64,000 bases of DNA from assembly GCA_964606485.1 (NCBI GenBank), contig CAZSGP010000001.1, positions 417,085-481,084 of the forward strand, read 5' to 3'. Every line of letters begins with the position of its first letter. Within the stretch, counting starts at the first letter, position 1. Shown in pieces: positions 33,078 to 56,718 of this stretch. The stretch is from an uncultured Planctomycetia bacterium (GTDB taxonomy: Bacteria; Omnitrophota; Gorgyraeia; 2-02-FULL-51-18). The notes beneath the pieces were generated by a model. It did not search any database. It was not told the origin of the DNA and saw only the letters and a program-made list of their open reading frames with translations. A program made the translations under genes and the position numbers.

Positions 33078-34616
33078 ATGCCAAGCTCTTTTGTTCTGAT
33101 GTTGGCTTCGGCCATCTTGCTTGTGCTGCCATTTCATTGTGGCAGTCTGGGTTTCCTCGCATTTTTTGCGCTCATCCCTTATTTCACACTGCTTAAAAAT
33201 AAAGAAGCCGGCGAAGCTTTTAAAATTTCCTATTGGACCGGACTTTTATTTTTTGCCTTGATGGGGTATTGGCTCAATTGGGTGAACGTGCTCGGGTTTG
33301 CGCTGCTGGTGCTGTATCTCGCACTTTATTTTGGTTTATTTGGGTACTGGGCTTCGAAGTTTATTCATTCCTCGTCACTGCGCACCGTGTTTTACATCCC
33401 CGCATTTTGGGTGGCGCTCGAATTTGTGCGCGGGTTTTTATTCAGCGGACTGCCGTGGGGCTTACTGGGATACAGCCAATGGAAAAGCATTGTTTGGATT
33501 CAAATTTCAGATCTCACCGGCGCGTGGGGCGTGTCGTATTTTGTGCTGCTTATAAACGTGCTTCTTTTTAAGATCATCGACGTGTGGCGTCTCAAAGTCT
33601 TACGGGGGCGCTTGATCGGCATTCTATTTATTGCGCTCGTCGTGGTGGCAAGCTACGGCGAATATCAGCTCATGAGCTGGAAAAATTATTTTAATGGCCC
33701 TTCTAAAAAAGCGGCTTTTAAAGTCTCGGTGTTGCAAGGCAATATTCCGCAAGAACAGAAATGGGACGCCAAGATTAAAGGCATTATTTTTGAAAAATAC
33801 AAACGCCTCACCTTGATGGCAGCGCTTCAAAAACCCGATTTGATTGTGTGGCCCGAAACGTCTTTTCCGGGGTTTTTGGAAGATGAGCCGACTCTCGCCG
33901 CGTCTTTGCGCAGTGTGGTGCGTCAGGCGCAAACGCCGGTTTTGGTTGGCGCGCCGGTGTTTGGAGATCTGGAAAAGGGCCTCAAGTTTTATAACAGCGG
34001 CGTTTACTACAGCGCGCAGGGCGAGGAGAAGGGGCGTTACAGCAAAATTCACCTCGTCCCATTTGGGGAGTACGTTCCCTTTGAGCCGCTAATCGGATTC
34101 ATTCGCCATTTTGTCACGATTGGGCATTTTAGTGCCGGATCCGAAAAAACCGTGTTTGAGTTGAAGCCCCGCGATGCGAGCCTAGGCTACTCCGCGCGCT
34201 TTAGCACGCTGATCTGCTACGAAGATATTTTTCCGGGACTGGTTCGCGGCTTTTGTTTGAATGGAGCTAATTTACTCGTGAATATCACAAACGACGCCTG
34301 GTTTGGTAAAACCACCGCCCCTTATCAGCATGCGCAAGGGTCAATTTTCCGGGCGGTGGAAAACCGTGTTCCCGTCGTGCGCTCGACGAATACAGGGCTA
34401 TCCTGTTTCATTTCCCAGACGGGGGAGATCCTTTCTTCTGTAAAGGATAGTGGCGAGGAAATCATGGTGACGGGTCACGCCACCGAAACCCTGATGCTGC
34501 GGAAAATCACAACCTTTTATACGCGGTTTGGGGAGGTATTTATGGTGCTGATCGGCTTTCTTTGCTTCTTGGCTTACCGCGACCGGGCCGCCCAAAACGA
34601 CTACTCAAAAATTTGA
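33078..34616 (+). CDS. lnt: Apolipoprotein N-acyltransferase Lnt (CN-hydrolase)
   Basis: N-terminal polytopic membrane domain plus a C-terminal nitrilase-like domain (VWPET...; LICYE). Start moved to the ATG at 33078 (MPSSFVLML). Confidence 0.85.
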   Translation: MPSSFVLMLASAILLVLPFHCGSLGFLAFFALIPYFTLLKNKEAGEAFKISYWTGLLFFALMGYWLNWVNVLGFALLVLYLALYFGLFGYWASKFIHSSSLRTVFYIPAFWVALEFVRGFLFSGLPWGLLGYSQWKSIVWIQISDLTGAWGVSYFVLLINVLLFKIIDVWRLKVLRGRLIGILFIALVVVASYGEYQLMSWKNYFNGPSKKAAFKVSVLQGNIPQEQKWDAKIKGIIFEKYKRLTLMAALQKPDLIVWPETSFPGFLEDEPTLAASLRSVVRQAQTPVLVGAPVFGDLEKGLKFYNSGVYYSAQGEEKGRYSKIHLVPFGEYVPFEPLIGFIRHFVTIGHFSAGSEKTVFELKPRDASLGYSARFSTLICYEDIFPGLVRGFCLNGANLLVNITNDAWFGKTTAPYQHAQGSIFRAVENRVPVVRSTNTGLSCFISQTGEILSSVKDSGEEIMVTGHATETLMLRKITTFYTRFGEVFMVLIGFLCFLAYRDRAAQNDYSKI

Positions 34617-34692
34617 ACCAAAGGGGTGCTTGTGATAAAGTACCCCTCGTCTTAAAAGTAACGTTTGTCCAATCAAAGGAGCTAAAGAGGGA

Positions 34693-35028
34693 ATGAAAAA
34701 GTCGTTTGCAATACTCGCGGCGTTTGTCGCAGTGATCGGATTTTCAGGATTGTCTTTTGCGGAAGATAAGAATTTGGTTGAGAACATTGCCGACGGAACC
34801 GGACAAGTGGTTGCCGGAGCCGCCAATGGTGTTGGAACCGTTGTGGCCGGTACGCCCGATGCGACGAAAAACGTCGTAGAAGGAACCGCCAATGCTACCG
34901 GAACGGTAATTGCCGGAACCCCTGATGCCACGAAGAATGTGGTCGAAGGAACTGGAAACGCCGTTGTAACTGTTGCTAAAACGGTGACGGGTCAGAATTT
35001 TTCCAGCGGAAACAAGAAAAAAGCTTAA
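34693..35028 (+). CDS. Small secreted protein with tandem ~22-aa repeats
   Basis: Signal peptide MKKSFAILAAFVAVIGFSGLSFA. Repeats VVAGTPDATKNVVEGTANATGTV / IAGTPDATKNVVEGTGNAVVTV. Confidence 0.5.
   Translation: MKKSFAILAAFVAVIGFSGLSFAEDKNLVENIADGTGQVVAGAANGVGTVVAGTPDATKNVVEGTANATGTVIAGTPDATKNVVEGTGNAVVTVAKTVTGQNFSSGNKKKA
34801..34975 (+). repeat. Tandem 66-nt coding repeat (2.5 copies) inside the small secreted protein gene
   Basis: gccggtacgcccgatgcgacgaaaaacgtcgtagaaggaacc recurs as gccggaacccctgatgccacgaagaatgtggtcgaaggaact. Confidence 0.5.
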
Positions 35029-35041
35029 GATTTAAAATAAG

Positions 35042-35076
35042 AAAACCGGGAGGCCTCACGGCTTCCCGGTTTTTTT
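35042..35076. terminator. Bidirectional rho-independent terminator between convergent genes
   Basis: AAAA-CCGGGAGGCC-tcac-GGCTTCCCGG-TTTTTTT: 10-bp stem with one G-U, A tract on one side and T tract on the other. Confidence 0.7.
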
Positions 35077-35087
35077 GTGCCTAAAAA

Positions 35088-35474
35088 TTACTTTTTAACG
35101 CTGTCGAGAGTCAGTTGAACCGATTGAATAACTTTTTTAGATTCAAAGGGTTTTGGAATGTAATCCGCAGCACCTAGCTTGATGGCTTCCTGAGCGATCT
35201 CCACGCTTTGATAACCGCTCACGATGATGACCGGAAGCGCAGGGCGCACCTTCTTGATCTGCTTTAAGATTTCAAGGCCGTGAAGTTTAGGCATTTTGAT
35301 ATCCAAGAGCATCACGTCAGGGGAGAAAGTCTTTAAAAGTTCAACGGCCTCAAGGCCATTGTGCGATAGGCGAATATTATAGAAGTCCGCCAAAATCAGC
35401 TTGAGCGACTCGCGAATACCTTCCTCGTCGTCGCAGATGAGAACCGTTTTCCTCGATGCATCATGGTTTGCCAT
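35088..35474 (-). CDS. Single-domain response regulator (CheY-like receiver)
   Basis: 128 aa. LICDDEEGIRESL with conserved Asp (MLLDIKMP), T/S (IIVSGY) and Lys (IPKPF). No output domain. No cognate kinase adjacent. Confidence 0.8.
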   Translation of the reverse strand: MANHDASRKTVLICDDEEGIRESLKLILADFYNIRLSHNGLEAVELLKTFSPDVMLLDIKMPKLHGLEILKQIKKVRPALPVIIVSGYQSVEIAQEAIKLGAADYIPKPFESKKVIQSVQLTLDSVKK

Positions 35475-35553
35475 TAAATTCTCCTTATTGAAAGTGTGAA
35501 AGAAACTCTACCATGAATTTGAATAATAATCAAATGCCCTGTCGCATCTCTTA

Positions 35554-35606
35554 ATTTGATTATAAATCAAATAAATGTTGACATAAATGAATCCCGCGTG
35601 TAATCT
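35554..35606 (+). promoter_or_regulatory. Promoter of the giant gene (TTGACA-17-TAATCT) preceded by a perfect 19-bp palindrome ATTTGATT-ATA-AATCAAAT
   Basis: Palindrome 35554-35572; a third AATCAAAT copy at 35528-35535. -35 at 35578-35583, -10 at 35601-35606. RBS GGGAGGAG before the ATG at 35641. Confidence 0.5.
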
Positions 35607-35640
35607 TTGGTTATCGTTGACCGTTTGGGAGGAGCTCGGC

Positions 35641-38600
35641 ATGAAAAAATCAAAAATTTTAATGAAAGTCGTGGCTTGGGTTTTGGTGTTTAGCACATTT
35701 CTCCAGAGCGGCGCCTGGGCACTGACTCCGCGGGAACTTTTGGACCAGGCGAAAGCGTCGTTTGGGTTTATGAGCGAGGATCATCACCAAGGCGGGGGAT
35801 TGAGTGCTGCCGGATTAGCCACGACGCAGTCTCAAGCGCAGAGCGCGGTCGATCAGCAGAACGTTTTGCAGGATCTTCAGGGGATGAATTTTAGTCTCAC
35901 CACTCAAAACGGCGACACACTGAGCTATGTCCAAAACACATTGTCTCAAATTACTCGTCCAGACGGAACCACTCTGAATAACATTTCTCAAGATTCGAGT
36001 GGCAACATTACCGGGGCCAACCTTCTTTTGAGTGACGGGACCGTGCAGGTTCTGCAAGGTGGAAGCATTTTGGGGAGTCAGTCGCCCGACGGCGCTCAGG
36101 TTTTCTATGATCTGCAAACGGGAAAAATTCAAAGAACGGTTTCCGCAAGCGGAGAAGAAACGACTTATACCTATTCCGATACAGAAACCCTGTTAGAGAA
36201 CATTCATTTTCAAACTGTTTATGACACTGACCAAAAACTAAAGAAGATTGTTGATAAATCATCCGGTAAACAAAGTTTTTTTCAGGACGGAAGGCTTCAG
36301 CGAATTGTGTTGGCAGACCATTCTGAAATTTTATACAACTCTGCAGCCCAGGGAAACCAAATCAAGGTTTCGCTTGGCGCTTATAAGGATGCAAGCGGTA
36401 ATCTTTACACGTTTGACGCGAGTGGGCTTGTCACGCGCATTGAGTCGAGCGTTGGCGTGCGCTACGGCTCGCTCATTTGGGGCGTTGATCAAAAAATAAA
36501 AGACGCGGAGATTACTTTTTCGAATGGCTCAAGAGGGGTGTATCAGTCTCAGAAACTTGTCCGGCTCACAGATTCGTCGGGGCAGATTACAAATTTTACT
36601 TACACCGCGGACCGAATAGTGGCGGCGTCGAGTGGGGTGAGTTCAGAGTATCAGCTAGACGGAACACTCGTAAAGTCGACGGATTCTGTTGGTGGCCAGA
36701 GTTTTTATTTCACCAGCGGACTCCACAAGGGCTACAAAGAAAGAGAAGTCGATACAGCTGGAAATATTTTTGTTTATGAATATTCAGCTAATAACACAGT
36801 TGAGCGAAAACAAATTCTTCGATCTGAGCAGACAGTGACTACATTTGCTGGCCAATCCACGCTTTTGGCGCGCAACAACCCCTTTTTAGGATTCGAAGTT
36901 TCGTTTAATCAAGACACCGACACCCAAGGCGTGACCCTGCAAAGCCAGGGCTCCTATCCGCCGCTTCAAATTAAATTGATTCCCGGTCAGGACGCTCAAT
37001 GCACCATTGGTTCAAGTCCCGCGCAATTACTGGGTGTAAGAATTGAGAAGTCCGCGACTTATAAAGTTGAAATAAAATTAAGCCAAGCCAATGCTAAAAT
37101 TTTTATTTATAAATCAGGCACGCCCATTCCGCAAACTCCCACCAAAATTATTCAACAACGCGATTGGAATGCGCGCTTCAATCTTCAAGCCACAAACGCT
37201 CGTCTTGTGTTGGATTCGCGTTCAAGCGGCGTTTACCGAACGGCGGTGGAAACTTCAGATCGCCAAGCGGTTTACCGGACTGGGGCCGTGGTTGAACGCG
37301 TGGATTTTAGAATTGATCCGAATACTCAGAATCGCCCGAGCATTAGTCTGAATGCTGAGCAGAAAGATGCGGCCAATCACAGGCGCAGTTTCTCTATGGA
37401 ATACTCCAGCGGAAAATGGAGAATTCAGGCATACGGCGGCGGACCGCGCTCTCAAAGTTTTACGGTGAATCAAAATCTTCAGGCGGGTGTGGATTACGTG
37501 GCGGAGTTGCGCTTCGAAAATAACGCCCTCAATTTTTACGTTTACCCAAGCGCTCAAGCGCGACCCGCGAGTCCAACAGCAACGCTCAGCGCGCTTTCAA
37601 ACGCTGGCGCACGATTTTCGTCAAGCCTCGATAAAGCGCAAGGCACAGCCCAAGTTTTTTACAATCTGCAATCGGTTTCACTGCAAAGTGTGAAAGGGAA
37701 GGCTTTGCCTCAGGAGATGGACCCTGTTCGCAATGATCCTAATTTTTGGCTTGTTCAGCCGGCGCAAAGCGTTTTGGAAGCCGCTTCACCCGCAAAAATG
37801 ATTCTTTATGGTCAGACCGGCCAGATGGAGCGCGTTGAGAAATGGGACGGCTCAAAATTTATTTTTACAAATGGCGCTTTGTCTCAAATGTTGGATCCCC
37901 AAGGAAATATCACTCAGCTTTCGGTTAACTCTTCCGATCTTGGAAATATTCTTGGAGCGACGATTGAGCAGAGTGGGGCCGAGTCGCATTACAACGCCGA
38001 GGGAAAATTAGAAACCGTGCGGGTGGGAGACATAACGGTTCATTATAAAAGACAAGATTCTTCGGCTTCGCCTCAGAATGACGGGGGAATTGATTATCTT
38101 GAAAAATCGGATGGAACCGAAATTCACGACATTGTTTTTGGTGGTCAAGGTGAAATTCAAAACGCGTCGGTTTATTTGACGGATGGCCGTATTAAATTTT
38201 ATGAGAATGGTCATCTGGTTAAGAGCGTAGAAGCAGATCGCTCCCAGATTTTCTTTGTGAATGACCAAGCCACGCAAATGATTACGCCTCAGGACCTGCA
38301 TTACGATTTTAATTACATGCCCGGACAGATTGAGGCGGTTCTGAATGTCGGATCTGTCATTCCCGCGCAGGCGGGAATCAGCGTGGATCCCCGCTTCCGC
38401 GCGGATGACACCGTTGTCCGGATGGTCTACGACTCCAATTTCAATCTCCAGAGCATGGTCCGGCAAAATAACGAAATCATCAATTTCTCCGGCAATCACA
38501 TTCAGTCGATTTTGACTCCCAGTCAGTTGCCGCAAACCGTTGTGCAGTTGGCTGAGGGTTACAAAGTTCTACAGGACAACACTGAAACGTTTTACGACTC

Positions 38601-41600
38601 GAGCAATCAAATTCAAAAGGTGTTGATCCATCCGCAAACGGGGACAGGGCAGTCTGTCCCAAGAAATGCGGGACAGACAGACCTGTCCCCGATGGGTCAT
38701 GAGCTTGAAATAACCTATCAATACGGCAAAATCCGGCAAATTAAAAAAGATAACGCGCTCACGTTTACGTATTCGTACACCTTTGAAAATGATAGGGAGC
38801 AGACTGTTATTCACGACTTGGAAGAAAACACGACGAAGACCTACGAAGAGAGCCTGCTTCAAAAAAGTTTCGACAACAACACCTCGGTGTTATCGAATTA
38901 TTCTTACGATTCTAATCAAAAGGTCTCTCAGGTTCTCGTCTCACGTCTTGGTCGCTCTCTTCACACCTACACTTACGCTTACAACGACAGGGCCACAGCC
39001 GATACCGCAGATGATTGGACGATTGTTACTGATGAAGCGGGTGTAATTCGGACCTACGGCCAAGCCCCCGTGACAAAAGTCACTCTCAAGAAAAAGGACG
39101 TCACCGACCCCAATGATTTGGATGCGAGCGGCAACCCCAGAGTCATCGGCCAAACGCTGGAAGAACAACCCCTGGAAATTCTCCCGCTCGAGAACAATAA
39201 GCTTCTCTCGATGGAAAAAGATCATAAGCTTTTTACTTATACCTACTCACTCAATGTTACCCAAGAAAAAGACGGCACGATTCTCGCCGGCAATTCTCAA
39301 GAATCTATTCAAGAGCGGCTCATCCAACAAACGCTCTCTGATGGATCTGTGGCGCATTACGACGAGTGGGGACAGATTCAAAATATCGTGTTGTCCAATG
39401 GGCTTACCCTGACAGATGTCGTGGTGGATCAAGCTCGTCAAATTCAAAGTGCGAAGGTGGTGGTTCCCGACGGACGGACACTCACCTTTAGCCAAGACCA
39501 TTTGCTAGAAGAAGTCACGCCGCAGAACGTGCATTATTCGTATCAAAACGGAAGACTGTCTCGCGTTGTCGATGAAAATGCACACGACTATTCTTTGGCT
39601 TATGATTTTTCATTGAGTGATCAGTTAAGCTCTATTCATTTAGATTTAGGAAATGAGGTTCTCAATTACAATTCTCAGGGACAAATTCAGTCGCTAGAGG
39701 TTGAAAATATTTTGACGCCTCAAGAAATTTTAGCGGGCCGCGTTAACACATCTTCCGGAGGAAACGGGGGAGATTGGGGCTACGATGGAAATTTCAACAC
39801 CGCCCAAACTGGAGGGCTTTACGTGGATCTTATTTCCACGCAAATGCTTCCGACTGCGAGCACGATCACCTCGCTTACCTATCGGCTTTTTGCGGACGCC
39901 AATTCCCAAGGCTCGCAAAACAACGGCAGTTCGGCTTACAGCTACATTCAAACACAGGACGCCACAACGCTTGCGTGGACCATAGTTCCGGGAAGCTTGC
40001 TGGTTGATAGTCACAACAACGGCGGTGGCGGCGGCTCCACCGCGCATGCGACGTCTGCGAATCCCGCCCAACTCAATGTGAATATTTCAAATGTCATTGC
40101 GGTGCGGGCTCTGACCGGGACCGCTGCGTACGCCAATAACGGCAGTGGTACGGCCGGCGGCTCCTCCGCTATTTATGAAGTCGAGCTTGGACTTGCGGAT
40201 TTATCGCAATTTCAATTTTCATCTTCAAGTCCAAATGGGCTTGTGTTTCAAAATTTATCCGGATCCCGAACTGTTTTAGGTTCTCAAAATATGGGCGTCC
40301 TGCCTTATTTTTCAAAAATTAACGAAGAGCTTCCAGCCGAACTCGCGTCATGGACGCAAAGTATCAAAAGCGCTCTCTTAGACACGAGCACGGTGACGAG
40401 TCAGGAATATTCCGCCGCGGGAATTTTACAAACTCAAACCAAAGCGGATCAGACCGTGACGCTTTTTAATGAGCACAACAAGCCCGTTCAGGTTTTGGAT
40501 AAAACCGGCAACACGCTGATGCAGTATCTTTACGACAATGACGGAAATCCCACGCGTGTGTATTTGAAAAACGCGCGCGATACGCTTCCGGACCAGATTC
40601 GCGCGGCAAGGGAAGCGATTGAAACTCAGAGAGCGTCCCAGCTTAAAATTCTCGCCCAGCAAAAAAATCTCGCTTACCAGACTATTTATGCGCAAGCCGA
40701 AACCCAGCGCCAGCTCCTAGGTTTTCAGATTCAAATGTTGGAAGATCAGGAAAATTATATCGAAAAAATTGAGGTTCAGGGATCTCAAGCCCGCTCTCAA
40801 AAAGCGGACGCTTTGTCTCAAATTCAAGACTCGCTCGACCACATCACCGGAGTGATCACGCAAATTTCTAGTTCAGAAGCGGATGCCTACGCAGGACTCA
40901 ATGCACAAGTCCAAACGCTTTCGAATCAAATTAATTTAGACGCCCAGCACGCATTTTCCGATCTCGATACCCAAGGACTGCTTCTTGAAAAAGAAATTCT
41001 GCGTCAGGAAGTGTCGCCCATTGTTTACGACGTCTATCGGCGGGTATTGGGCCGCGATCCAAATTCACAGGAATATGATGGTTGGATTAGTCAACTTAGC
41101 TACAGTCAAAATAATGGGCTCGCCGAGGCCAAAACACTTTCAGGGATCGGTTTAACACAGGCCATTGCAACGTCTCTGTCCAATTCGCAGGAACTAGCGG
41201 ATCGCCAAGCTTATGTTCAGGCTGTTCGCAGTGGCGTTTCGGCACAGATTCAACAATTCTTAAATCTTTCGGACGCTGGCAAGCTCGCTTTTGCCCAGAA
41301 CTTGGGACTGCCCGCGCAGGATTTAATTGCGCTTTCGCAAGCCGACGCTCAAAAAATAATGACATGGCTTAGCTCGCGCTCGCTTCACTTTGGGCAATCC
41401 GCGTTTTTGTCTTTGGAGTCATTGCTCGATCAAAATAATATTTCTTACAACCGTATCGACATTGCTCAGAAAGCCATCTTGATCGACATCTTGAGCGGCG
41501 TGATTTCTCCGCTCGATGATGGGGATCTTGTGATCTCTGTATTTGCACTCAATAAAGTTGCGGCGCTTTATGGATTGAATCTTTCCGGCGCTCGTCTTAC

Positions 41601-44415
41601 TTGGGACGACTTGCGCGTCATCCCGAGCGGTACTCGCATTATCGCCCACATTCTTGGAAACCACTATGTTGTAATCACAGGGATAACTCAGGATTCGATT
41701 ACCTATATCGATCCCGGTATTGGGGCCGATAAACAGAACGAAGTCGTAACCGTATCAAAAGCTGGCTTCCTGAAAGTTTGGAAGGGGAACGTTACCCTTG
41801 AACAATCTAAGCTACAAACCGTCGCCGGGTACCAGAACAAGGTCCTATCCGCCACACAGACCCAACAGATCAGAGGGGCCTTCTTTGGCAGTATTCTTGG
41901 CCTTATAGGCTCGATTCTAACGTGGGTCCCAGGCCTCAATGGCATTGGCATAGCGCTTACCGCAATCTCTGCTGCTGTATCCGCGATTGAAGGCGACTTC
42001 ATTTCAGCGATCTCATCCATTGTTACCCTCGGCATGGCCAATTTGGGTAGTTTCTTTCAGACGGCTTTTGATGGGGTAATAAAAGCCATGGGTCCCCTTG
42101 GCCAGGCATTCTCCAAGGTGGGGCAGGTGTTCGGAAGTATTTATAACGGTGTGGTCGGCTTTATCAATAGCGCCGTTGGATTCTTGCCCGGCATTGGCAC
42201 AGCGCTTCAAGGAGCCGCAGGTGCGTTGCACACCACCATTGGGAATGCGATAGTAAACACAGCCCTTTCTACAGGTCTCAATATCGGGGCGACCAAGGGG
42301 CTCACAGCTTTGGGCGTATCGCCCCAAATTGCTTCGTTCCTCGGTCAGCTAACCGCCGGTGCTGTGATCGGAGCCCTGCAACCCCAAACAATGGCGGGTG
42401 GGCACGTTGCTATTACCCAAGCGCAGAATATCCAAGCAGCTGTTCAGCAGACGATCATCTTAAACCAAGTCGGCCGTCTTGGCACAGAGCTTGGTCTTGA
42501 CCCATCTTTCACCAACATAATTGGACTGTCCCTTGGAGCAATTCAAGGCCAACTCATTACGAATCCCAGCGCCGATCCCTTGACTTATGCATTCTCCAAT
42601 ATAAAACCCGAGCTTTTTTCATCCCTGGCACAATACGGAATTCAAAAGCTGGGAACCTCTCTGGGCATAGACCCACGGCTGTCAACCCTGATCGGCTCGC
42701 CAATCAGCGCTGGAATTGGAACTGCTTTTGGGCAAGGCGTAACGGCAGGCACTCAAATAATCAATTCGATCAATGATGGTTTATTGCGAGGGGTTACTTC
42801 ACTGGGAATCGAATATGCTACGCAAAATGTTGATCCACTTCTTGGATCTTTGACTTCAAGGGCAGTAACAGGGGCTATTGAGGGAATGTTGGGTGGAAAT
42901 ATCTTTGATGGAATCTTCAGAGCATATTCGCAGTCAGTGCTTAATGTGGCAAGACTTGGTGTGTCGGGCTCTGATTCGTGGAGTCAGGCACAATATATTC
43001 AAAGAGCGACTAATTTCTCTACAATTGTTCAACAAAAAGGTTTGGCCCAAGCAATCGAAGACACAGCTACACAGGTAATGACTGAAGATTCAATCAGCTC
43101 TATTCTCAAATCTTTCCAGACCGTTGGGGCATTTATTCAAGACCAGATTCAGGGCAATAAACCACAATCGGTTCAGCAGGATGGGACTACATACAAGAAG
43201 GTCCTGCTGGCCAACGGTGATTATCAGATTTACACAGCTGACTACAAAGACCTTGTAGAAGTGAAAATGGGGAACACAATTCTTCGGGGAACATTTGGCA
43301 GGGACGAAACCGGGCTTCTTGGACTTAAGACGGGCACTATCTCAATCTATGATGCCAGCGGGAAACTACAGTCCAAAACGTATATTGAAAACGGCTGGAA
43401 TATCGAAGATGTCCATTATTCGGTTGACCCTCTTTCGGGGCAAGAGGCAGTTGACTTAACCGTTAAGCCAATTAAGGGCAAACTTGGTATTACCTTTGAT
43501 GAGTTTGGTAATTATCGAGACGCAGATCTTATAGGCAAAGACAACCAGTTCCATTTCTCGATCAATAGTGGCATTGCGACGTCGGCTCAGTATGGATTTC
43601 AATTTATGGCTGATAGCGACTTAACATGGCTAAGCCAACAAGGACTTGATTCGGCCAGCTTGAATAATCTTTTGTTCAACGAAACAGTTGATGCGACCGG
43701 AAACTATGCAACTTCTTTAAGGTGGGAAGCCAATAATTCCCTTATACCCGAAAATTGGGTTGATGCATTTAAATCGCCGGATTCTGCTGAGCGAATTATG
43801 AATGCGTTCCAAGGCTTCGGATTCAGGACTAATAGCGAAATTGCGCAACATTTTAGCAATGACGCCGAAATTCTTAAAACAGCTGCAAAAACTGGTACAA
43901 TAATTTCTGTTAGGGGGCGGACATTATCGGCAGCGGTAATAAAAACAGTAACGTCAGGCCCAGTCAATCATACAGCTACCTTGTATATTGATAACCAAGG
44001 TCAGCGTTGGGTATTTGAAGAATTGGGCCCATTGCCACAACAAGGTCTCCAAAAAGTTCGTCTCGATGATTGGCTCGCTCGATATCAGTCTGAGAAACCA
44101 GATATTAACATTGGAGGCTTAGATCAAGTGGGAGCCGATCAAGATATTAAACAGGCGATTGAACGTAGCTTCTTCTATTGGAATCGGGATGCGAACGGCA
44201 ACTGGACTATGACGGATGAGGTTATTCCAATGCCGTATAATACTGCAAACTTGATAGGGTTATCTTCCGGCGGCAATATTTGCAGTAGCCTGATCGTTGA
44301 ACTATATCGAGATAGCGGCCATCCTCTATTCGGCTTGACCGAAACGGACGTTCAACTTCAATATTCGCCAAATGATGTCTATAGACGTTTGAAATTACTA
44401 GGATATACGGATTAA
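35641..44415 (+). CDS. Giant secreted multidomain protein (2924 aa): YD/RHS-like repeats, coiled coil, degenerate C39-like peptidase domain, Gly/Ala-zipper hydrophobic segment, divergent C-terminal module
   Basis: Signal peptide MKKSKILMKVVAWVLVFSTFLQSGAWA. Recurring YD-type repeat motifs (TYTYSDTE, FTYSYTF, FTYTYSL, VHYSYQNGRL, YSLAYDF). Gly-rich low-complexity stretches (NNGGGGGSTAHAT). ~150-aa coiled coil (aa ~1550-1700). C39-like block HYVVITGI...ITYIDPGIG...FLKVWKGNV with no Cys at the expected nucleophile position. ~450-aa Gly/Ala-rich amphipathic region (GAFFGSILGLIGSIL...). C-terminal Cys/His motif GGNICSSLIVELYRDSGHP. The track ORF starts at 35587; ATG 35641 is preferred. Confidence 0.85.
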   Translation: MKKSKILMKVVAWVLVFSTFLQSGAWALTPRELLDQAKASFGFMSEDHHQGGGLSAAGLATTQSQAQSAVDQQNVLQDLQGMNFSLTTQNGDTLSYVQNTLSQITRPDGTTLNNISQDSSGNITGANLLLSDGTVQVLQGGSILGSQSPDGAQVFYDLQTGKIQRTVSASGEETTYTYSDTETLLENIHFQTVYDTDQKLKKIVDKSSGKQSFFQDGRLQRIVLADHSEILYNSAAQGNQIKVSLGAYKDASGNLYTFDASGLVTRIESSVGVRYGSLIWGVDQKIKDAEITFSNGSRGVYQSQKLVRLTDSSGQITNFTYTADRIVAASSGVSSEYQLDGTLVKSTDSVGGQSFYFTSGLHKGYKEREVDTAGNIFVYEYSANNTVERKQILRSEQTVTTFAGQSTLLARNNPFLGFEVSFNQDTDTQGVTLQSQGSYPPLQIKLIPGQDAQCTIGSSPAQLLGVRIEKSATYKVEIKLSQANAKIFIYKSGTPIPQTPTKIIQQRDWNARFNLQATNARLVLDSRSSGVYRTAVETSDRQAVYRTGAVVERVDFRIDPNTQNRPSISLNAEQKDAANHRRSFSMEYSSGKWRIQAYGGGPRSQSFTVNQNLQAGVDYVAELRFENNALNFYVYPSAQARPASPTATLSALSNAGARFSSSLDKAQGTAQVFYNLQSVSLQSVKGKALPQEMDPVRNDPNFWLVQPAQSVLEAASPAKMILYGQTGQMERVEKWDGSKFIFTNGALSQMLDPQGNITQLSVNSSDLGNILGATIEQSGAESHYNAEGKLETVRVGDITVHYKRQDSSASPQNDGGIDYLEKSDGTEIHDIVFGGQGEIQNASVYLTDGRIKFYENGHLVKSVEADRSQIFFVNDQATQMITPQDLHYDFNYMPGQIEAVLNVGSVIPAQAGISVDPRFRADDTVVRMVYDSNFNLQSMVRQNNEIINFSGNHIQSILTPSQLPQTVVQLAEGYKVLQDNTETFYDSSNQIQKVLIHPQTGTGQSVPRNAGQTDLSPMGHELEITYQYGKIRQIKKDNALTFTYSYTFENDREQTVIHDLEENTTKTYEESLLQKSFDNNTSVLSNYSYDSNQKVSQVLVSRLGRSLHTYTYAYNDRATADTADDWTIVTDEAGVIRTYGQAPVTKVTLKKKDVTDPNDLDASGNPRVIGQTLEEQPLEILPLENNKLLSMEKDHKLFTYTYSLNVTQEKDGTILAGNSQESIQERLIQQTLSDGSVAHYDEWGQIQNIVLSNGLTLTDVVVDQARQIQSAKVVVPDGRTLTFSQDHLLEEVTPQNVHYSYQNGRLSRVVDENAHDYSLAYDFSLSDQLSSIHLDLGNEVLNYNSQGQIQSLEVENILTPQEILAGRVNTSSGGNGGDWGYDGNFNTAQTGGLYVDLISTQMLPTASTITSLTYRLFADANSQGSQNNGSSAYSYIQTQDATTLAWTIVPGSLLVDSHNNGGGGGSTAHATSANPAQLNVNISNVIAVRALTGTAAYANNGSGTAGGSSAIYEVELGLADLSQFQFSSSSPNGLVFQNLSGSRTVLGSQNMGVLPYFSKINEELPAELASWTQSIKSALLDTSTVTSQEYSAAGILQTQTKADQTVTLFNEHNKPVQVLDKTGNTLMQYLYDNDGNPTRVYLKNARDTLPDQIRAAREAIETQRASQLKILAQQKNLAYQTIYAQAETQRQLLGFQIQMLEDQENYIEKIEVQGSQARSQKADALSQIQDSLDHITGVITQISSSEADAYAGLNAQVQTLSNQINLDAQHAFSDLDTQGLLLEKEILRQEVSPIVYDVYRRVLGRDPNSQEYDGWISQLSYSQNNGLAEAKTLSGIGLTQAIATSLSNSQELADRQAYVQAVRSGVSAQIQQFLNLSDAGKLAFAQNLGLPAQDLIALSQADAQKIMTWLSSRSLHFGQSAFLSLESLLDQNNISYNRIDIAQKAILIDILSGVISPLDDGDLVISVFALNKVAALYGLNLSGARLTWDDLRVIPSGTRIIAHILGNHYVVITGITQDSITYIDPGIGADKQNEVVTVSKAGFLKVWKGNVTLEQSKLQTVAGYQNKVLSATQTQQIRGAFFGSILGLIGSILTWVPGLNGIGIALTAISAAVSAIEGDFISAISSIVTLGMANLGSFFQTAFDGVIKAMGPLGQAFSKVGQVFGSIYNGVVGFINSAVGFLPGIGTALQGAAGALHTTIGNAIVNTALSTGLNIGATKGLTALGVSPQIASFLGQLTAGAVIGALQPQTMAGGHVAITQAQNIQAAVQQTIILNQVGRLGTELGLDPSFTNIIGLSLGAIQGQLITNPSADPLTYAFSNIKPELFSSLAQYGIQKLGTSLGIDPRLSTLIGSPISAGIGTAFGQGVTAGTQIINSINDGLLRGVTSLGIEYATQNVDPLLGSLTSRAVTGAIEGMLGGNIFDGIFRAYSQSVLNVARLGVSGSDSWSQAQYIQRATNFSTIVQQKGLAQAIEDTATQVMTEDSISSILKSFQTVGAFIQDQIQGNKPQSVQQDGTTYKKVLLANGDYQIYTADYKDLVEVKMGNTILRGTFGRDETGLLGLKTGTISIYDASGKLQSKTYIENGWNIEDVHYSVDPLSGQEAVDLTVKPIKGKLGITFDEFGNYRDADLIGKDNQFHFSINSGIATSAQYGFQFMADSDLTWLSQQGLDSASLNNLLFNETVDATGNYATSLRWEANNSLIPENWVDAFKSPDSAERIMNAFQGFGFRTNSEIAQHFSNDAEILKTAAKTGTIISVRGRTLSAAVIKTVTSGPVNHTATLYIDNQGQRWVFEELGPLPQQGLQKVRLDDWLARYQSEKPDINIGGLDQVGADQDIKQAIERSFFYWNRDANGNWTMTDEVIPMPYNTANLIGLSSGGNICSSLIVELYRDSGHPLFGLTETDVQLQYSPNDVYRRLKLLGYTD

Positions 44416-44819
44416 TGAAGAAAATACACGCTGGCTTGCCTTACGTAATATCGTTAATATATGTTTTCCTTGGCGTTGTTATTTATGATTGGACCACGCA
44501 CATGGCCCCGGCGCTGGACGGAAGAGGGCAAGCTAGAACTATTTTTCTAGAAACATTTTTAATATGTCTCGGCTTAATTATTTTTGTCACAACGTTTATC
44601 GAGCGAAGGAAAAATATTAGCCAGTTATTTTGGTCTTTTTTATTCTTTTCGGGGTTGACCATACTTGTGGTTGTCGGCTTCATAGTGTCACTGGCTGATA
44701 GATCAGCAAATTCAACCCTATTGAAGAATTACTGGGAATATTTGTGGGTATCAGTTATTCTTTACTTGCCAGCAGTACTTTTGTATCTTTTGAAGATTAA
44801 GAGGCCCGTTAACTCATAA
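44415..44819 (+). CDS. Small 4-TM membrane protein, translationally coupled (TAATG) to the giant gene; candidate immunity/partner protein
   Basis: 134 aa, four hydrophobic helices. The start overlaps the giant gene stop by 1 nt. Confidence 0.5.
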   Translation: MKKIHAGLPYVISLIYVFLGVVIYDWTTHMAPALDGRGQARTIFLETFLICLGLIIFVTTFIERRKNISQLFWSFLFFSGLTILVVVGFIVSLADRSANSTLLKNYWEYLWVSVILYLPAVLLYLLKIKRPVNS

Positions 44820-45175
44820 TGAGAACAATATTAACCCCCATTTTGCTTCTGTTGTTTTTTAGCGTAGGCGTCATTGCAAACGCAAGCGATGCTCTTGTTC
44901 AGGAAGGGAAAAAGGCCATCGAAAATGGTCGTTACGAGGAAGCTGTTAATGACGTTGGTCAGATTTTAGATAAGTCAGACAACGTTTCGCGTGATCCTGA
45001 AGTATTGAGTTTGCATAAGGCCATCCAAGCATATGGTATGATTCGGTTAAATGATCACGGTTATGATAAAGAAATCGAACAAAATTTAACAGGTGCAATT
45101 AGCCTTGATCCAAATTGGGAGTATCCAAAAAAATTATTGGAAGAATTTCGAATTTCCAAGGACCATAAAATTTAG
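44819..45175 (+). CDS. Small secreted protein (TPR-like helix pair), translationally coupled (TAATG)
   Basis: 118 aa. Signal peptide MRTILTPILLLLFFSVGVIANA. Confidence 0.45.
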   Translation: MRTILTPILLLLFFSVGVIANASDALVQEGKKAIENGRYEEAVNDVGQILDKSDNVSRDPEVLSLHKAIQAYGMIRLNDHGYDKEIEQNLTGAISLDPNWEYPKKLLEEFRISKDHKI

Positions 45176-45187
45176 AAATTTATCTGC

Positions 45188-45397
45188 ATGAACGACCACG
45201 AAACCGTCCTCACCAAGCAGTTACGATCCCAGCTTATTGAAGAGCGTCGGGATCTCGAAGCCGAATACTTCAGGCGGATGCCTCTAAACCAGAAAATCCA
45301 CTCTTTTGCCTTCGCCATAGTCTTTGTAGGCGGCATCTTTTTCGGGGTGGGGCTGATCGGATTCATCCTGTATAAGCTGATTTTTCGCCATCCCTGA
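45188..45397 (+). CDS. Hypothetical small protein with a C-terminal TM helix
   Basis: 69 aa, FAFAIVFVGGIFFGVGLIGFILY. Preferred over the antisense ORF 45172-45441. Confidence 0.3.
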   Translation: MNDHETVLTKQLRSQLIEERRDLEAEYFRRMPLNQKIHSFAFAIVFVGGIFFGVGLIGFILYKLIFRHP

Positions 45398-45616
45398 AGA
45401 GCCGCAATAAAAATATTTTTCCAGCCGGAATTTCGCGGCAATTCGTAATTTTATCCAAAGTAAGCGCAATTAAGCGATAAAACGTGAAGATACACTACGA
45501 GCCATCAAAAGCATTTTTTATATGGCTAAAGAAGTTAAAGATTTTTAAGAAGTGCTCTTGTAAGCGGGTCATTCATATGCCAGACTTTTTCCGTGGTAGG
45601 ATTGGAGGTCTGAGCA

Positions 45617-45862
45617 ATGAAGATAGTGGTCCATTTGAATCACGGCGTTGATAAGAGTTACTTGCTGGTATTCGGCAAAAACTCCATCACCAGAGATCAA
45701 GTTCGCCAAATCATCAATCAAAACGACGATATTTCGGCGAAGCAGCTTATTTTTAAATCCGGCGAGAGGTATGAGCTCAACCCTTCAGAAGCACGCCGAG
45801 CAGAAATGGTTGCCGATTTTGTGGTGAGCCAGCACGGTTACAGTGCTGAACGTTTAGCATAA
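45617..45862 (+). CDS. Hypothetical protein
   Basis: 81 aa. GGAGG RBS 8 nt upstream. Followed by the terminator at 45890-45923. Confidence 0.4.
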   Translation: MKIVVHLNHGVDKSYLLVFGKNSITRDQVRQIINQNDDISAKQLIFKSGERYELNPSEARRAEMVADFVVSQHGYSAERLA

Positions 45863-45889
45863 GTTAGTCAGCAATCTCCAAGTAAAAGT

Positions 45890-45923
45890 CGAAGCGTTTT
45901 GGCGCTTCGGCTTTTTTGTTTTT
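45890..45923 (+). terminator. Rho-independent terminator
   Basis: CGAAGCG-ttttgg-CGCTTCG then CTTTTTTGTTTTT. Confidence 0.6.
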
Positions 45924-46034
45924 ATCAGATAAGCCCATCCAGAATAGTCCGTGACAAATCTCTTTTCCCTCTGTTATTATTAGGTATCAGTTTCGGATAA
46001 TTACGGTTATCAACGGAAAAGGGCGATTAATAAA

Positions 46035-46241
46035 ATGACCACAGATATCATGTCTTTGCCAGAGGTCTGCGAATACCTAAAGCTGACCAAAAGCACTGTT
46101 TATAAGCTTTCGCAAAGAGGGGATTTGCCGTCTTCGCGCATTGGAAGACAACTGCGTTTTCGGAAGTCCAGGGTAGATTCTTGGCTCGATTCAAGAGAAA
46201 TTCAGAAAGCAAAGAAAGCGAAGAAATCAGCAAGACGTTAA
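46035..46241 (+). CDS. Excisionase/AlpA-family helix-turn-helix DNA-binding protein (HTH_17-like)
   Basis: 68 aa. LPEVCEYLKLTKSTVYKLSQRGDLPSSRIGRQLRFRKSRVDSWL. Resembles the protein at 56478-56672. Confidence 0.7.
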   Translation: MTTDIMSLPEVCEYLKLTKSTVYKLSQRGDLPSSRIGRQLRFRKSRVDSWLDSREIQKAKKAKKSARR

Positions 46242-46270
46242 ACGGCGGCTGCATGTAGCGACGGAGATTC

Positions 46271-47218
46271 ATGGAGAAGCAAGACTACATACACACAAGC
46301 AAGAGTGGGCATAAAATCAATATTGTTTCATTGGTCCCCAATGAACCGAAACGGATTTTACTTATCCCGCCTTTGGTTGGAGCAACCGGGACACTTGCTA
46401 TTAGGACTTTTCGCTATTTTTTTCGTGAAAATGGTTACTTAATGTCATTCCAGTATTGCGGGCATTCCGATCAGCTTCACAATCAATTTACAATTACAGG
46501 CACTTTCGTAGATACCAAAGAGGCAATATTGCACGCGATTGAAACGGGAAGAAAACTGGAGATCCCGGTTCACGTGGTAGGCGCTTGTTATGGCTTAATC
46601 CCTTTAATCTGCGTTCTTCATGAATTGAAATGGCCCCGTGAAGTAAAGTCATTATTTAGCGTGGGTGGGTTATTCAGTATGCACGAGCTCATTAATTTTG
46701 ACGGATATAGCCCCTATCTGAAGAAACGCGGAATCACATTCAAAAATAAGACTGAATTCATCGAATACATGAAAACAGAAAAATCAACTTTTGTAAAAAA
46801 CAAAAAAATTTACACTGAGGCATTGACAGAGTATTTGATCTCCATTTTTGATGAATTAAAAGATGTCATTTCGTATGAAAGCTTCGGAGTGATGCAGTAT
46901 TCAAACGTCGATTTTTATAAAGCATTTTATGAATTTATAACCATCGACTTGCCGAAGGTCACGATACCCAGCTATTTTCCTTGTTTATTTTTCACCGGCG
47001 TCGAAGATCACGTATTGAAGTTGGAGACGGCGACCGGAAATAGCGTTTACACCAAAAAAATTACCGCAATGGCCCCGCACGCTCAATTCCGCAACATTAA
47101 GATTGACCACTTTGGCAGAGGTGAAGACCATTATGTAATAGGGGAAGATGGGATGAAGTTTCTATTAAAAAATGAAAAGCTGAATGTCCTCGAGGGAGTG
47201 CGCGATGGCAATTCATAA
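46271..47218 (+). CDS. Hypothetical protein, possible alpha/beta-hydrolase fold with a Cys nucleophile elbow (G-A-C-Y-G)
   Basis: 315 aa. RILLIPPLVGATG...VHVVGACYGLIP. Weak call. Confidence 0.4.
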   Translation: MEKQDYIHTSKSGHKINIVSLVPNEPKRILLIPPLVGATGTLAIRTFRYFFRENGYLMSFQYCGHSDQLHNQFTITGTFVDTKEAILHAIETGRKLEIPVHVVGACYGLIPLICVLHELKWPREVKSLFSVGGLFSMHELINFDGYSPYLKKRGITFKNKTEFIEYMKTEKSTFVKNKKIYTEALTEYLISIFDELKDVISYESFGVMQYSNVDFYKAFYEFITIDLPKVTIPSYFPCLFFTGVEDHVLKLETATGNSVYTKKITAMAPHAQFRNIKIDHFGRGEDHYVIGEDGMKFLLKNEKLNVLEGVRDGNS

Positions 47219-48101
47219 TAGAATTTCAACACAAGACCTTGAAGCCAAAAGGTGGCCATATTATCTCATTTACCCCATGACATCGCTTTTGGTTCTGTGG
47301 GCTGTCCTTAAGAAGAAACTCTATGGGTTATTCCGGCCAAGGAAGGAAGTCAATTTTCTGCTTTTTGATGGAATTGGCAAATATGGCAAAGTTATCAAAC
47401 GAAATGTGACTGGCTGGAGAGCGGTCGATTTGATTTATAACCACCGTTTTGGCGAGACGAAATCGATTGGTGGCCGCCTTGATGATTTTTGGTTTGATAG
47501 TCTCAATTGTCAGGCTGCAAGAAACCGCTTCAAATTAGCAAAGAGGGAGCTGGAGAAGGCGATATTGAATACACCAGCCTCTGAAGTAAGAGTGCTTTCA
47601 TTGGCATCTGGGACCGGACAAATCGAAAGCGAAACGTTGGCAAATGTAAGAGATAAAAACGTAAACGTCAAAGCAGTCCTCATCGACCGTGAGGCTGAAG
47701 CGCTCGAACGAGCAGAACACTTTATTTCGTCAAACGGAGTTTCCGAAAGCATTAAGTTAATCAATTCAGACGTGATGCAGGCGATCGAAATTGCAAAAGA
47801 ATTTAATCCGCATATCATTCAAATGGTGGCGTTCTTGGATTATCTGCAAGAACAGGAGGCAATTGATTTCTTGTCGGATATCTATGGCACTCTCCCGGAG
47901 GGAGGGTATTTTATCGCGTCAAATACGATGCCAAATCTTGAAATGCATTTTGTAAAAGAGGTGGTTGGCTGGCCCCTGATATACAGGAACCATGAAGAGA
48001 TAGGGCGTATATTTGAAAAAAGCGGCTTCAAAAATGCCCAAATTATTGACGAACCTTTAGGTATTCAAAATATGATAGTCGCTAAAAAGCAGGCTGGGTA
48101 G
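47205..48101 (+). CDS. Class I SAM-dependent methyltransferase
   Basis: VLSLASGTGQIE (motif I, GxGxG-like), acidic residue after beta2 (LIDRE), LINSDVM. The ATG at 47205 overlaps the upstream stop. Confidence 0.55.
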   Translation: MAIHNRISTQDLEAKRWPYYLIYPMTSLLVLWAVLKKKLYGLFRPRKEVNFLLFDGIGKYGKVIKRNVTGWRAVDLIYNHRFGETKSIGGRLDDFWFDSLNCQAARNRFKLAKRELEKAILNTPASEVRVLSLASGTGQIESETLANVRDKNVNVKAVLIDREAEALERAEHFISSNGVSESIKLINSDVMQAIEIAKEFNPHIIQMVAFLDYLQEQEAIDFLSDIYGTLPEGGYFIASNTMPNLEMHFVKEVVGWPLIYRNHEEIGRIFEKSGFKNAQIIDEPLGIQNMIVAKKQAG

Positions 48102-48109
48102 CCCGCCGG

Positions 48110-50350: not shown

Positions 50351-50705
50351 GACGTTATTAGTTATTGATGACGAAGTCGAAATGACGCGTATTTTAGTAG
50401 GCACATTTAGCAATCGCGGTTATACCGTCTTTGAAGCCAATTCCGGACACGATGCCATCTCTATTTTAGAGAAGAACCACATTGATGCCGTGACATTGGA
50501 TCTTAATATGCCGGGGATGGATGGAATTGCCGTTGCCGCAGAGATGAATAAGCGTTTCCCCAAGGTAAAGATTATCGTCGTCTCAGGCTTCGGTGGGGAA
50601 TATGACGAAGAACTTAAAACCGTCAAAGTCGACGCTCACATTCCAAAGCCGATTAACATGACGGCCTTACTCAAAAAAATTCCTGAATTGCTGGATGGAA
50701 AATAA
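50343..50705 (+). CDS. Single-domain response regulator receiver
   Basis: LLVIDDE...LDLNMPGMDG...IIVVSGFG...KPI. The start overlaps the kinase stop by 8 nt. Confidence 0.8.
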   Translation: MPRTLLVIDDEVEMTRILVGTFSNRGYTVFEANSGHDAISILEKNHIDAVTLDLNMPGMDGIAVAAEMNKRFPKVKIIVVSGFGGEYDEELKTVKVDAHIPKPINMTALLKKIPELLDGK

Positions 50706-51300: not shown

Positions 51301-51401
51301 CTAACGACATACTGAAGCAGTCCCAAGGCTGTTTTTTAGCCACTGATAGAAATGTGAGCAACATTCTATCGGTGGCTTTTTCTTTTTTGGAGGCCTTTTG
51401 G

Positions 51402-53043: not shown

Positions 53044-53078
53044 GAACAGCAGGGCGGAGAATTTCGGAGTTTTAGGAT

Positions 53079-55068: not shown

Positions 55069-55327
55069 AATTGTCTGATATTTGGGTGCTCGCCATGTTC
55101 TCGTTATTTTGAATTAAACATACATTTCTCACCCCGATTTCTACCTCGATTTTTTGAATAATCCGGTATCTCGCTAACGTTCAAAGAGTTGTGGCGTTTT
55201 CCAAGGCGCATGGCCCATTATTTACCCCCGCTATTGTTTGCGATTAAATTGAGTATTTAATCTCAAATAGACTGGATTTCCCCGGAATCCATGGCATCAT
55301 TCGACTGACAAAGGGGAGGGCACACCG

Positions 55328-56672: not shown

Positions 56673-56718
56673 CATTTTTTTGGGAAGAGACGACTTGCAA
56701 GGAGATCATAAAAGCAAA

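Follow-up and report, generated by a model that had tools for sequence, protein, structure and literature searches.

A polymorphic toxin family of Omnitrophota with a predicted serine-type C39 processing module

Introduction

Polymorphic toxin systems are built on a common plan (PMC3482391): the protein has a trafficking signal, repeats, a peptidase for processing and a toxin domain that varies at the C-terminus, an immunity gene lies downstream, and orphan cassettes occur. In the parts of that survey drawn on here, the releasing peptidases are HINT, ZU5, PrsW, caspase, MCF1-SHE, PVC-metallopeptidase and papain-like OTU domains, and C39-like domains appear only as toxins. The subject of this work is a gene at positions 35641–44415 (+) of a 64,000-nt stretch of DNA ("the window"; contig CAZSGP010000001.1 of assembly GCA_964606485.1, positions 417,085 to 481,084) from an uncultured bacterium placed in the phylum Omnitrophota. 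Its 2924-amino acid (aa) product has the same set of parts, but with a C39-like domain as the putative releasing peptidase, and belongs to a previously uncharacterised polymorphic toxin family of this phylum. The explanation favoured here, which we regard as probable, is that the gene encodes a Sec-exported toxin of this class with a Ser-type C39 processing module.

With the C39 domains of the PCAT/AMS exporters (PCAT1, ComA, LahT) the protein shares a papain-like fold, with His and Asp in the same strands, and a leader pattern with hydrophobic residues at −12 and −4, an acidic or amide residue at −8, Gly at −2 and Gly, Ala or Ser at −1. It differs from them in having Ser for Cys, a nonconserved oxyanion Gln and no fusion to an ABC (ATP-binding cassette) transporter; "enzyme" and "leader" lie in a single, apparently Sec-exported chain, with the leader C-terminal to the domain, and some relatives have a LamG-like insert inside the fold. 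In many class II bacteriocins and microcins the material after the cleavage site is Gly-rich and hydrophobic, as it is here after the putative site.

StbD-CT is a C39-family peptidase toxin of a CdiA-like protein (PDB 8SSK/8SSM; bioRxiv 10.64898/2026.05.07.723447). It too is a C39 domain within a polymorphic toxin, and it auto-processes in cis at Gly-Gly|Ala. In StbD, however, the C39 domain is the toxin itself, Cys-based and redox-gated, and the cut is N-terminal to it, whereas in the protein considered here the domain is internal and has Ser, the putative site follows it on the C-terminal side, and a different, swappable domain serves as the toxin.

The Omnitrophota are uncultured, ultra-small and probably predatory or episymbiotic, and what their long secreted proteins do is a standing question. 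Two preprints (West-Roberts et al., 2023; a 2026 complete-genome study) report C39 domains in long proteins of this same phylum, with self-cleavage proposed; those studies cover proteins of at least 10,000 aa. In the searched text of both, Ser substitution, a leader in cis, C-terminal polymorphism and immunity genes are not described, and the 2026 preprint uses neither the word "polymorphic" nor the word "immunity". A literature search found no paper tying Omnitrophota to polymorphic toxins of this kind, and neither a Gly/Ala-rich helical region between peptidase and toxin nor an Omnitrophota host range was found described. With the present comparison one widespread family (about 100 loci) is assigned to a testable class, that of polymorphic toxins with cognate immunity genes.

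Variable C-termini and immunity genes

A whole-protein search returned 14 homologues of 2785–4958 aa, the named ones being proteins from Omnitrophota metagenome-assembled genomes. A scan of one genome per species identified 67 loci, and a metagenome scan anchored on the His and Asp strands of the C39-like domain 39 more. About 42 of the 67 are titled Omnitrophota, Omnitrophica or a Candidatus taxon within them, and the rest "uncultured Planctomycetia" or "uncultured bacterium". Several members occur per genome: the 546,306-bp contig that includes the window also encodes a 4356-aa paralogue (P0001) with an alpha/beta-hydrolase-type tail, and in Candidatus Omnitrophus fodinae (contig ASOC01000009.1) two members, L037 and L047, lie in tandem with different tails.

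The C-terminal parts of these proteins are variable. Forty complete tails (39 related loci plus the window) fall into 14 cassette types, the most common of which, type T0 (24 of 40), shares a GYSGG...H.DY motif; the remaining types are rare or unique. From its motifs T0 can be read as alpha/beta-hydrolase-like, with no Pfam match, and one homologue with a different tail (P0012) has Pfam matches to Abhydrolase, DUF676 and Tle3. A Pfam scan of ten alternative tails gave Ntox10 as the sole match. This is in L055, where the tail is Ntox10 (PF15520, E 1.8e-24) and the open reading frame (ORF) overlapping its stop codon is Imm27 (E 5.9e-14); Ntox10 and Imm27 are given as a cognate pair in the part of the survey that concerns them (Zhang et al., 2012; PMC3482391). 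One family of tetratricopeptide repeat (TPR) lipoproteins is encoded downstream of 19 of the 24 T0 tails, nearly always in the adjacent or overlapping first ORF, and of none of the others. The C-terminal polymorphism and this covariation of toxin and immunity genes are direct observations on the relatives.

In the window protein, homology with differently tailed homologues ends between aa ~2440 and ~2670, mostly at ~2500–2625 (BLAST end-points), which marks the start of the variable cassette. The GC content, 48.1% before aa ~2480, is about 43% beyond it and 38% in the two downstream ORFs. Cassette fragments also occur by themselves: a metagenomic locus, L072 (ENA contig k141_397404, 260–1710), consists of the orphan C-terminal half of a domain of the type found at the end of the window protein (C92, below), a four-transmembrane protein and an IS200-like Y1 transposase. 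Variable tails, recognised toxin domains, a covarying immunity gene, orphan cassettes and a step in GC content are the features that define a polymorphic toxin, and all are found in the family. New toxin and immunity domains can be drawn from the variable slot, which has at least 14 cassette types, most of them without a Pfam match and each paired with a candidate immunity gene. IS200-like Y1_Tnp genes are found just downstream of about 12 of the 39 family loci, with differing tails, and may be involved in cassette exchange.

Two small ORFs follow the window gene directly. The first (44415–44819, +) encodes a 134-aa protein with four transmembrane segments, its start overlapping the toxin stop codon (TAATG), and the second (44819–45175, +), stop-start coupled to it in the same way (TAATG), a 118-aa exported, TPR-like protein that is a second candidate immunity or accessory factor. 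The 118-aa protein has no Pfam match, and its similarity to the TPR lipoprotein of L002 is not significant (E 0.14). The 134-aa protein can be compared with the 137-aa four-transmembrane protein of L072 (26% identity over 82 aa, pairwise E 3e-6). Because of this pairing, and by analogy with immunity genes elsewhere in the family, the 134-aa ORF is likely to be the immunity gene here. The idea that a small multi-transmembrane protein gives immunity throughout the family, by acting on the Gly/Ala region common to all members, was also considered, and rejected since one is found in only 11 of 39 loci.

The C39-like domain

The C39-like domain was modelled as aa 1875–2055 (41263–41805, +). An initial annotation of this DNA had described a C39-like block that lacks Cys and keeps the His and Asp of the C39 triad. 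Both points hold. The protein has just two Cys residues, C454 and C2881, and thus none between aa 455 and 2880, and His2008 (41662–41664, +) and Asp2024 (41710–41712, +) align with the catalytic positions in the strands of the PCAT peptidase (PEP) domain. All of the peptide motifs quoted in that annotation were found in the protein, at aa 1916–1928 (HFGQSAFLSLESL), 2008–2015 (HYVVITGI), 2020–2028 (ITYIDPGIG), 2045–2051 (KVWKGNV) and 2877–2895 (GGNICSSLIVELYRDSGHP).

The C39-like fold itself is indicated by several comparisons. Peptidase_C39 (PF03412) matches with scores of 31.3 and 34.8 bits, above the cutoff of 22 (E 1.7e-8, aa 1966–2052), over positions 46–126 of the 133 in the profile, that is, its C-terminal two-thirds. 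A profile of 15 family sequences matches the PCAT1 PEP domain (E 5.7e-7), with the family's nHyVvIT strand and yiDPgkG turn aligned with the His and Asp elements. An AlphaFold2 (AF2) model of aa 1875–2090 is confident (predicted local distance difference test, pLDDT, 87; predicted TM-score, pTM, 0.83), and its top Foldseek matches are StbD-CT (the best), PCAT1, ComA, LahT150 and the C39-like domains of HlyB and Vibrio (PDB matches 7N87, 5XE8, 3K8U, 6MPZ and 3B79; target TM-scores 0.5–0.69).

The region where the nucleophile should be was aligned separately. An hhalign alignment with the PCAT domain of a plasmid, a canonical one (QHDYKDCGCACL...), begins four residues past the catalytic Cys, and extending its register places the Cys at Ser1920 (codon TCC, 41398–41400, +). 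The catalytic Cys of C39 is therefore not in place, an intact one having been looked for by this alignment, and the 15 aligned family sequences have Ser at the position, never Cys. In the model Ser1920 is at the N-terminus of a helix (model residues 45–57), and the N-terminus of the core helix is the defining position of the nucleophile in the papain fold (PMC10318531). The codon TCC is one transversion from the Cys codon TGC.

Among the 15 family sequences H1916, F1917, S1920, A1921, D1949, G1953, S1966, H2008, F2043 and G2079 are invariant, the first two at −4 and −3 relative to Ser1920, and position 2024 is Asp or Glu in all relatives. The Ser/His/acidic set holds among relatives down to ~32% identity. 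Note that the genome scan was seeded on LHFGQSAF, with a six-sequence alignment, and is biased towards Ser; the metagenome scan served as a counter-check, being anchored on the His and Asp strands instead. All 25 unique relatives from it that include the N-terminal half have HFG[QM]SA, and none has Cys. A word-indexed homologue search with the C39 profile gave only one fragment. The domain identity and the invariant residues are observed directly; that Ser1920 acts as a nucleophile we infer from its position and conservation.

Some relatives have additional material in this region. In L075, L077, L084, L105 and L112 a Laminin_G_3-like insert of ~200–250 aa within the C39-like fold separates the LSGANLSWEDL segment from the His strand, with the Ser helix retained upstream of it. 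In P0003 and P0005–P0008 pairs of LamG domains are found instead between a DUF4214-like motif (see below) and the C39 domain.

No C39 domain with Ser in this role came up in a search of the literature. Conserved Ser-for-Cys families of the papain fold are known, C39 not being among those enumerated, and C-to-S mutants of papain-fold enzymes can keep residual activity (PMC10318531). A natural, conserved Ser-for-Cys switch in the C39 branch of the papain fold, with its putative substrate motif in cis, offers a convenient system in which to ask whether papain-fold serine proteases exist.

A leader-like motif in the same chain

About 25 aa past the C39-like domain, at aa 2069–2080 (41845–41880, +), is a double-glycine-type leader-like motif, LSATQTQQIRGA, with a predicted scissile bond between A2080 and F2081 (41880|41881). 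Its family consensus is L(−12)S..[E/Q]...[I/V]RG[A/S]|F, represented here by G2079-A2080|F2081, and it lies ~25–90 residues past the fold among homologues. In 57 unique family sequences the positions −2 (Gly), −1 (Ala or Ser) and −12 (Leu, Ile or Val) are kept without exception, −4 (Ile or Val) and −3 (Arg) in 56 each, +1 (Phe) in 55, −8 (Glu or Gln) in 43 and −11 (Ser or Thr) in 42. Leaders of C39 peptidase substrates end in Gly-Gly, Gly-Ala or Gly-Ser and have Leu at −12, Glu at −8, Leu at −7 and Val at −4 (PMC6363468), a rule that the motif fits well save at −7. The distance from motif to C-terminus varies little (803–962 aa), in proteins whose total length ranges from 2785 to 4958 aa. In the AF2 model, residues up to about −10 have a pLDDT of ~95, and confidence falls over the G-A-F. 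The initial annotation had connected the domain with the recognition of double-glycine leaders; this motif, which it did not notice, strengthens the connection.

Cleavage in cis after A2080 by the Ser-type C39 module appears the most likely function of this arrangement, because an invariant triad and a motif of scissile type occur together, StbD-CT processes itself in cis, and C-to-S mutants can be residually active.

The Gly/Ala-rich region

Directly after the leader-like motif, aa 2081–2505 (41881–43155, +) form a helical, hydrophobic region that is rich in Gly and Ala and low in charge, delimited by composition, zipper motifs and hydrophobic windows. It opens with FFGSILGLIGSILTWVPGLNGIGIAL, the most hydrophobic stretch of the protein. 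Between aa 2080 and 2500, Gly accounts for 14% of residues, Ala for 11% and charged residues for 7.6%, and there are 24 small-xxx-small-xxx-small motifs where ~7 would be expected from the rest of the protein (3.5-fold), in agreement with the long Gly/Ala-zipper segment noted initially. The region is conserved in all homologues. Within it are three LGxxLG[LIV][DS]Pxxxxxx[IL]G repeats, ~57–60 aa apart (aa 2224–2360; 42310–43000), which contain Gly positions that are invariant across the family and suggest a repeated helical-hairpin unit. An AF2 model of aa 2071–2575 from 15 sequences has ~18 helices, of which the secondary structure alone is usable, the packing being unreliable (pLDDT 44, pTM 0.25). 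From its composition and position, this is a putative membrane-insertion or translocation module, and it may be a new one.

The C-terminal cassette

A beta-rich linker or pre-toxin segment (aa 2506–2720; 43156–43800, +; AF2 strands with pLDDT 70–85) leads to the toxin domain of the window protein, at aa 2721–2924 (43801–44415 including the stop codon, +). This resembles the circularly permuted NlpC/P60 enzymes of the Peptidase_C92 (YaeF/YiiX) type. A profile of 12 subfamily sequences matches 3KW0 (E 4.4e-15), a Bacillus cereus "cysteine peptidase", and 2IF6 (E 3.1e-7), the E. coli YiiX, in both cases over the His and the Cys motif; Peptidase_C92 (PF05708) is found in eight of the 12 members (best E 5.5e-10) and NLPC_P60 in three. 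The permuted His...Cys order is the same, and the GD-type N-terminal strand (TG[TD]IISV), the NHTA motif with the His and the ICS helix with the Cys all align. It differs in being a very divergent and rare subfamily that is used as a toxin cassette. A search of 1.84 billion representative proteins with the last ~225 aa gave only 19 relatives, mostly C-terminal fragments of similar toxins.

Three residues are invariant in the subfamily, H2777 (43969–43971, +) and C2881 (44281–44283, +), both predicted to be catalytic, and S2882. A Cys/His module with the motif GGNICSSLIVELYRDSGHP had been noted at this end of the protein. The motif is there and its Cys is the invariant C2881; His2894 is not conserved, and the catalytic pair is not a local C...H motif, His2777 being ~100 aa upstream of the Cys. 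C92 enzymes are described as lipid amidases, the amide bond cut by 3KW0 being that of a lipid-amino acid (PMC10318531). Since this is the closest solved relative, the probable target, by analogy, would be amide bonds in membrane lipids, lipoproteins or the cell wall.

The gene and the N-terminal region

The ORF is uninterrupted from the ATG at 35641, which sits 7 bases after a GGAGGAG ribosome binding site, to the stop codon at 44413–44415; a longer ORF from 35587 was rejected as an unlikely start in favour of this one. The identical 2924-aa product is encoded on the 546,306-bp contig at NCBI and also on a 92-kb Logan contig from an independent assembly (SRR12487046), so that a frameshift artefact is unlikely, and the worry on this account that had accompanied the initial description of the ORF is largely removed.

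The N-terminus has a Sec-type signal peptide at aa 1–27 (35641–35721, +; MKKSKILMKVVAWVLVFSTFLQSGAWA then LTPRELL), read from the sequence with a detectable hydrophobic core, and both the N-terminus and the "PRELLDQAKASF"-like motif are conserved in homologues. Sec export of the 2924-aa protein is thus predicted. There follows a beta-rich region, aa 28–1639 (35722–40557, +), with sparse YD/RHS-type repeats. The YD/RHS-like repeats noted initially are borne out by one RHS_repeat match in aa 1–450 (22.8 bits, E 1.2e-4), which is marginal; the others are few, weak and below the Pfam threshold. Homologues carry PF05593, PF25023, PF13385 and PF00754, and a sequence search of the PDB with aa 400–720 and aa 1340–1540 gave no matches. 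The region is probably a target-binding or scaffold part. It is followed by a helical stalk (aa ~1640–1790) and a DUF4214-like motif, VYDVYRRVLGRDP (aa 1795–1807), together at 40558–41130 (+). With 56% Q/E/K/R/A/L and one Pro, the stalk has the composition of the coiled coil that had been proposed, composition being what that assignment was judged by. The DUF4214 match is sub-threshold (E 0.006), and the motif is kept in 14 of 14 homologues.

No RHS core (P....DP.G[LIVM] or PxxxxDPxGL) or aspartyl autoprotease motif was found in the protein, nor any DP.G[LIVM], which agrees with the original description of a non-standard Rhs architecture without PxxxxDPxGL. The protein is best filed as neither a member of the Rhs family nor a catalytically canonical C39 peptidase.

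Proposed mechanism and alternatives

A sequence of events can be proposed from these parts. The N-terminal YD-type and beta-rich modules and the helical stalk would act as a scaffold or bind the target. The C39-fold domain (Ser1920, His2008, Asp2024) would bind the adjacent leader helix (L2069...I2077-R-G2079-A2080) and cut in cis after A2080, releasing a C-terminal fragment of ~845 residues. Its new N-terminus, FFGSILGLIGSIL..., would be the hydrophobic, glycine-rich head of the ~425-aa helical membrane-insertion region, which may insert in the target membrane and carry the C92 warhead (His2777, Cys2881) to its lipid or cell-wall substrates, while the four-transmembrane protein (44415–44819), perhaps with the next, exported one, would shield the producer. 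A weak nucleophile would suffice for a single-turnover, tethered reaction, and the oxidation by which StbD is gated would not affect Ser. The model also presumes a route across the outer membrane.

More speculatively, a C39 leader peptidase with a Ser nucleophile may have become the toxin's own releasing protease, built in, insensitive to redox state and limited to a single turnover, which would cut its own leader and unmask a fusion-peptide-like N-terminus; the ~845-aa fragment of translocation region and warhead would then be driven into the membrane of prey or a competitor, a form of delivery without a type V, VI or VII secretion system (T5SS, T6SS, T7SS) and widespread in the Omnitrophota. 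This fuller version is offered as a tentative one, with somewhat more doubt than confidence attached.

Several observations weigh against the favoured explanation. The oxyanion-hole Gln, ~6 residues before the nucleophile in canonical C39, aligns with a variable S/N/D/G position, and non-catalytic binders of the HlyB type are among the structural matches. In the leader-like motif, position −7 is A, T or Q in the family rather than Leu, and −8 in the window protein is Q rather than E. The packing of the modelled Gly/Ala region is unreliable, and the region could instead be an inner-membrane anchor. The window sequence by itself scores just 14 bits against PF05708 (cutoff 27, E 0.055), which is sub-threshold; the likeness of the 134-aa ORF to its L072 counterpart is modest; and in L038, where the one further full-length protein with a C92-like tail is encoded, the ORF that follows is a different one. 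Finally, partner genes for type I secretion (T1SS), T5SS or T6SS, whose presence on the contig had been raised initially, were looked for in the 64-kb window and no components found.

Three other explanations can be set against these observations. The most serious of them, though we think it unlikely, retains the polymorphic toxin otherwise unaltered and takes the Ser-C39 domain to be a non-catalytic, HlyB-like one that clamps the leader helix, as a latch or chaperone shielding the hydrophobic C-terminal fragment, with release occurring without cleavage or by another protease. The missing Cys and canonical oxyanion Gln speak for this, as does the HlyB C39-like domain (CLD) among the Foldseek matches, and C39-like domains without proteolytic activity are known in T1SS (PMC6363468). 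A binding-only CLD, however, needs neither an invariant Ser/His/acidic set nor an invariant G-[A/S] at −2/−1 with Phe at +1; small residues at −2 and −1 are the hallmark of a scissile site, and a weak nucleophile can be tolerated in a single-turnover reaction in cis (PMC10318531). In a second and improbable alternative, aa 2081–2120 form a hairpin of stop-transfer type, by which the protein is held in the inner membrane of the producer; the C39-like domain is a sheddase that frees the 2050-aa N-terminal part as an adhesin or predation scaffold, as in LapG/LapA, and the C-terminal enzyme works on the cell's own envelope. The strongest hydrophobic windows do come directly after the leader-like motif, many long Omnitrophota proteins are predicted to have a signal peptide and transmembrane helices (2026 preprint), and there are no dedicated outer-membrane secretion genes nearby in the window. 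Left unexplained are the hypervariable C-terminal cassettes, including Ntox10 with Imm27, the strict covariation of tail type with downstream gene, and the orphan cassettes, features that mark toxins aimed at other cells.

The marginal RHS_repeat matches and the presence of a double-glycine-type motif might also suggest an encapsulating toxin of the Rhs/Tc type, or a protein carried by some other PCAT/T1SS exporter through recognition of this internal motif. We consider this very improbable and have rejected both forms of it: the protein lacks both an RHS core and an aspartyl autoprotease motif and has only a few weak YD repeats, it starts with a Sec signal and has the leader-like motif 2069 residues in, and no ABC/PCAT, membrane fusion protein or outer membrane factor genes of an exporter are found in the window. 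The Ser-type C39 processing module in a Sec-exported polymorphic toxin is kept as the favoured explanation.

Genomic context and regulation

Upstream of the toxin gene on the opposite strand is a receiver-only response regulator of 128 aa (35088–35474, −; Response_reg E 6.6e-30). This had been described as a divergent orphan receiver. It is divergent; within the family it is not an orphan, orthologues (47–73% identity) being divergently upstream of family members in L001, L005, L012, L013 and L036, with HisKA_7TM kinases nearby. The L001 receiver, 73% identical, has two HisKA_7TM kinase genes and an HTH-cupin gene as neighbours, and similar receivers or kinases are found at several other family loci. 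The adjacent regulator itself has no DNA-binding domain.

The intergenic region between the two genes has two operator-like palindromes, ATTTGA-N7-TCAAAT (35517–35535 and 35554–35572; two matches where none would be expected). The perfect 19-bp palindrome reported initially is the proximal one, ATTTGATT-ATA-AATCAAAT, more exactly 8-bp arms around a 3-nt centre; the other copy, 37 bp upstream, is an addition. The proximal palindrome ends 5 nt before TTGACA (35578–35583), which is followed after 17 nt by TAATCT, a promoter-like arrangement read by eye; a promoter/terminator scanner found nothing in 34600–35700. The same layout of palindrome and TTGACA is found upstream of the L001 homologue (L001 5707–5725). 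Expression is probably controlled through this conserved palindromic operator and the neighbouring two-component genes.

Downstream of the toxin locus is a lower-GC stretch (~44400–61300; 0.41–0.43 up to ~52 kb), which looks like an integrated mobile or defence island. It includes an HTH_17 excisionase-like gene (46035–46241), a HisKA_7TM-GAF histidine kinase (48110–50350) and an integrase (55328–56242), along with an unassigned 315-aa ORF, a methyltransferase, a truncated M41-like ORF, a D12 adenine methylase, a ParB-like gene, a C5 cytosine methylase and an SNF2 helicase. Upstream are a dcw/Mur cluster, ftsQ/A, riboflavin genes, a BamD-like lipoprotein, murJ, uvrC, prfB, secA and lnt; these genes point to a diderm host with peptidoglycan. 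Among the upstream genes is a 1071-aa ORF (14510–17725, +) that fuses a MurC-type Mur ligase, MurB (FAD-binding and MurB_C) and a D-Ala-D-Ala ligase, an unusual triple fusion.

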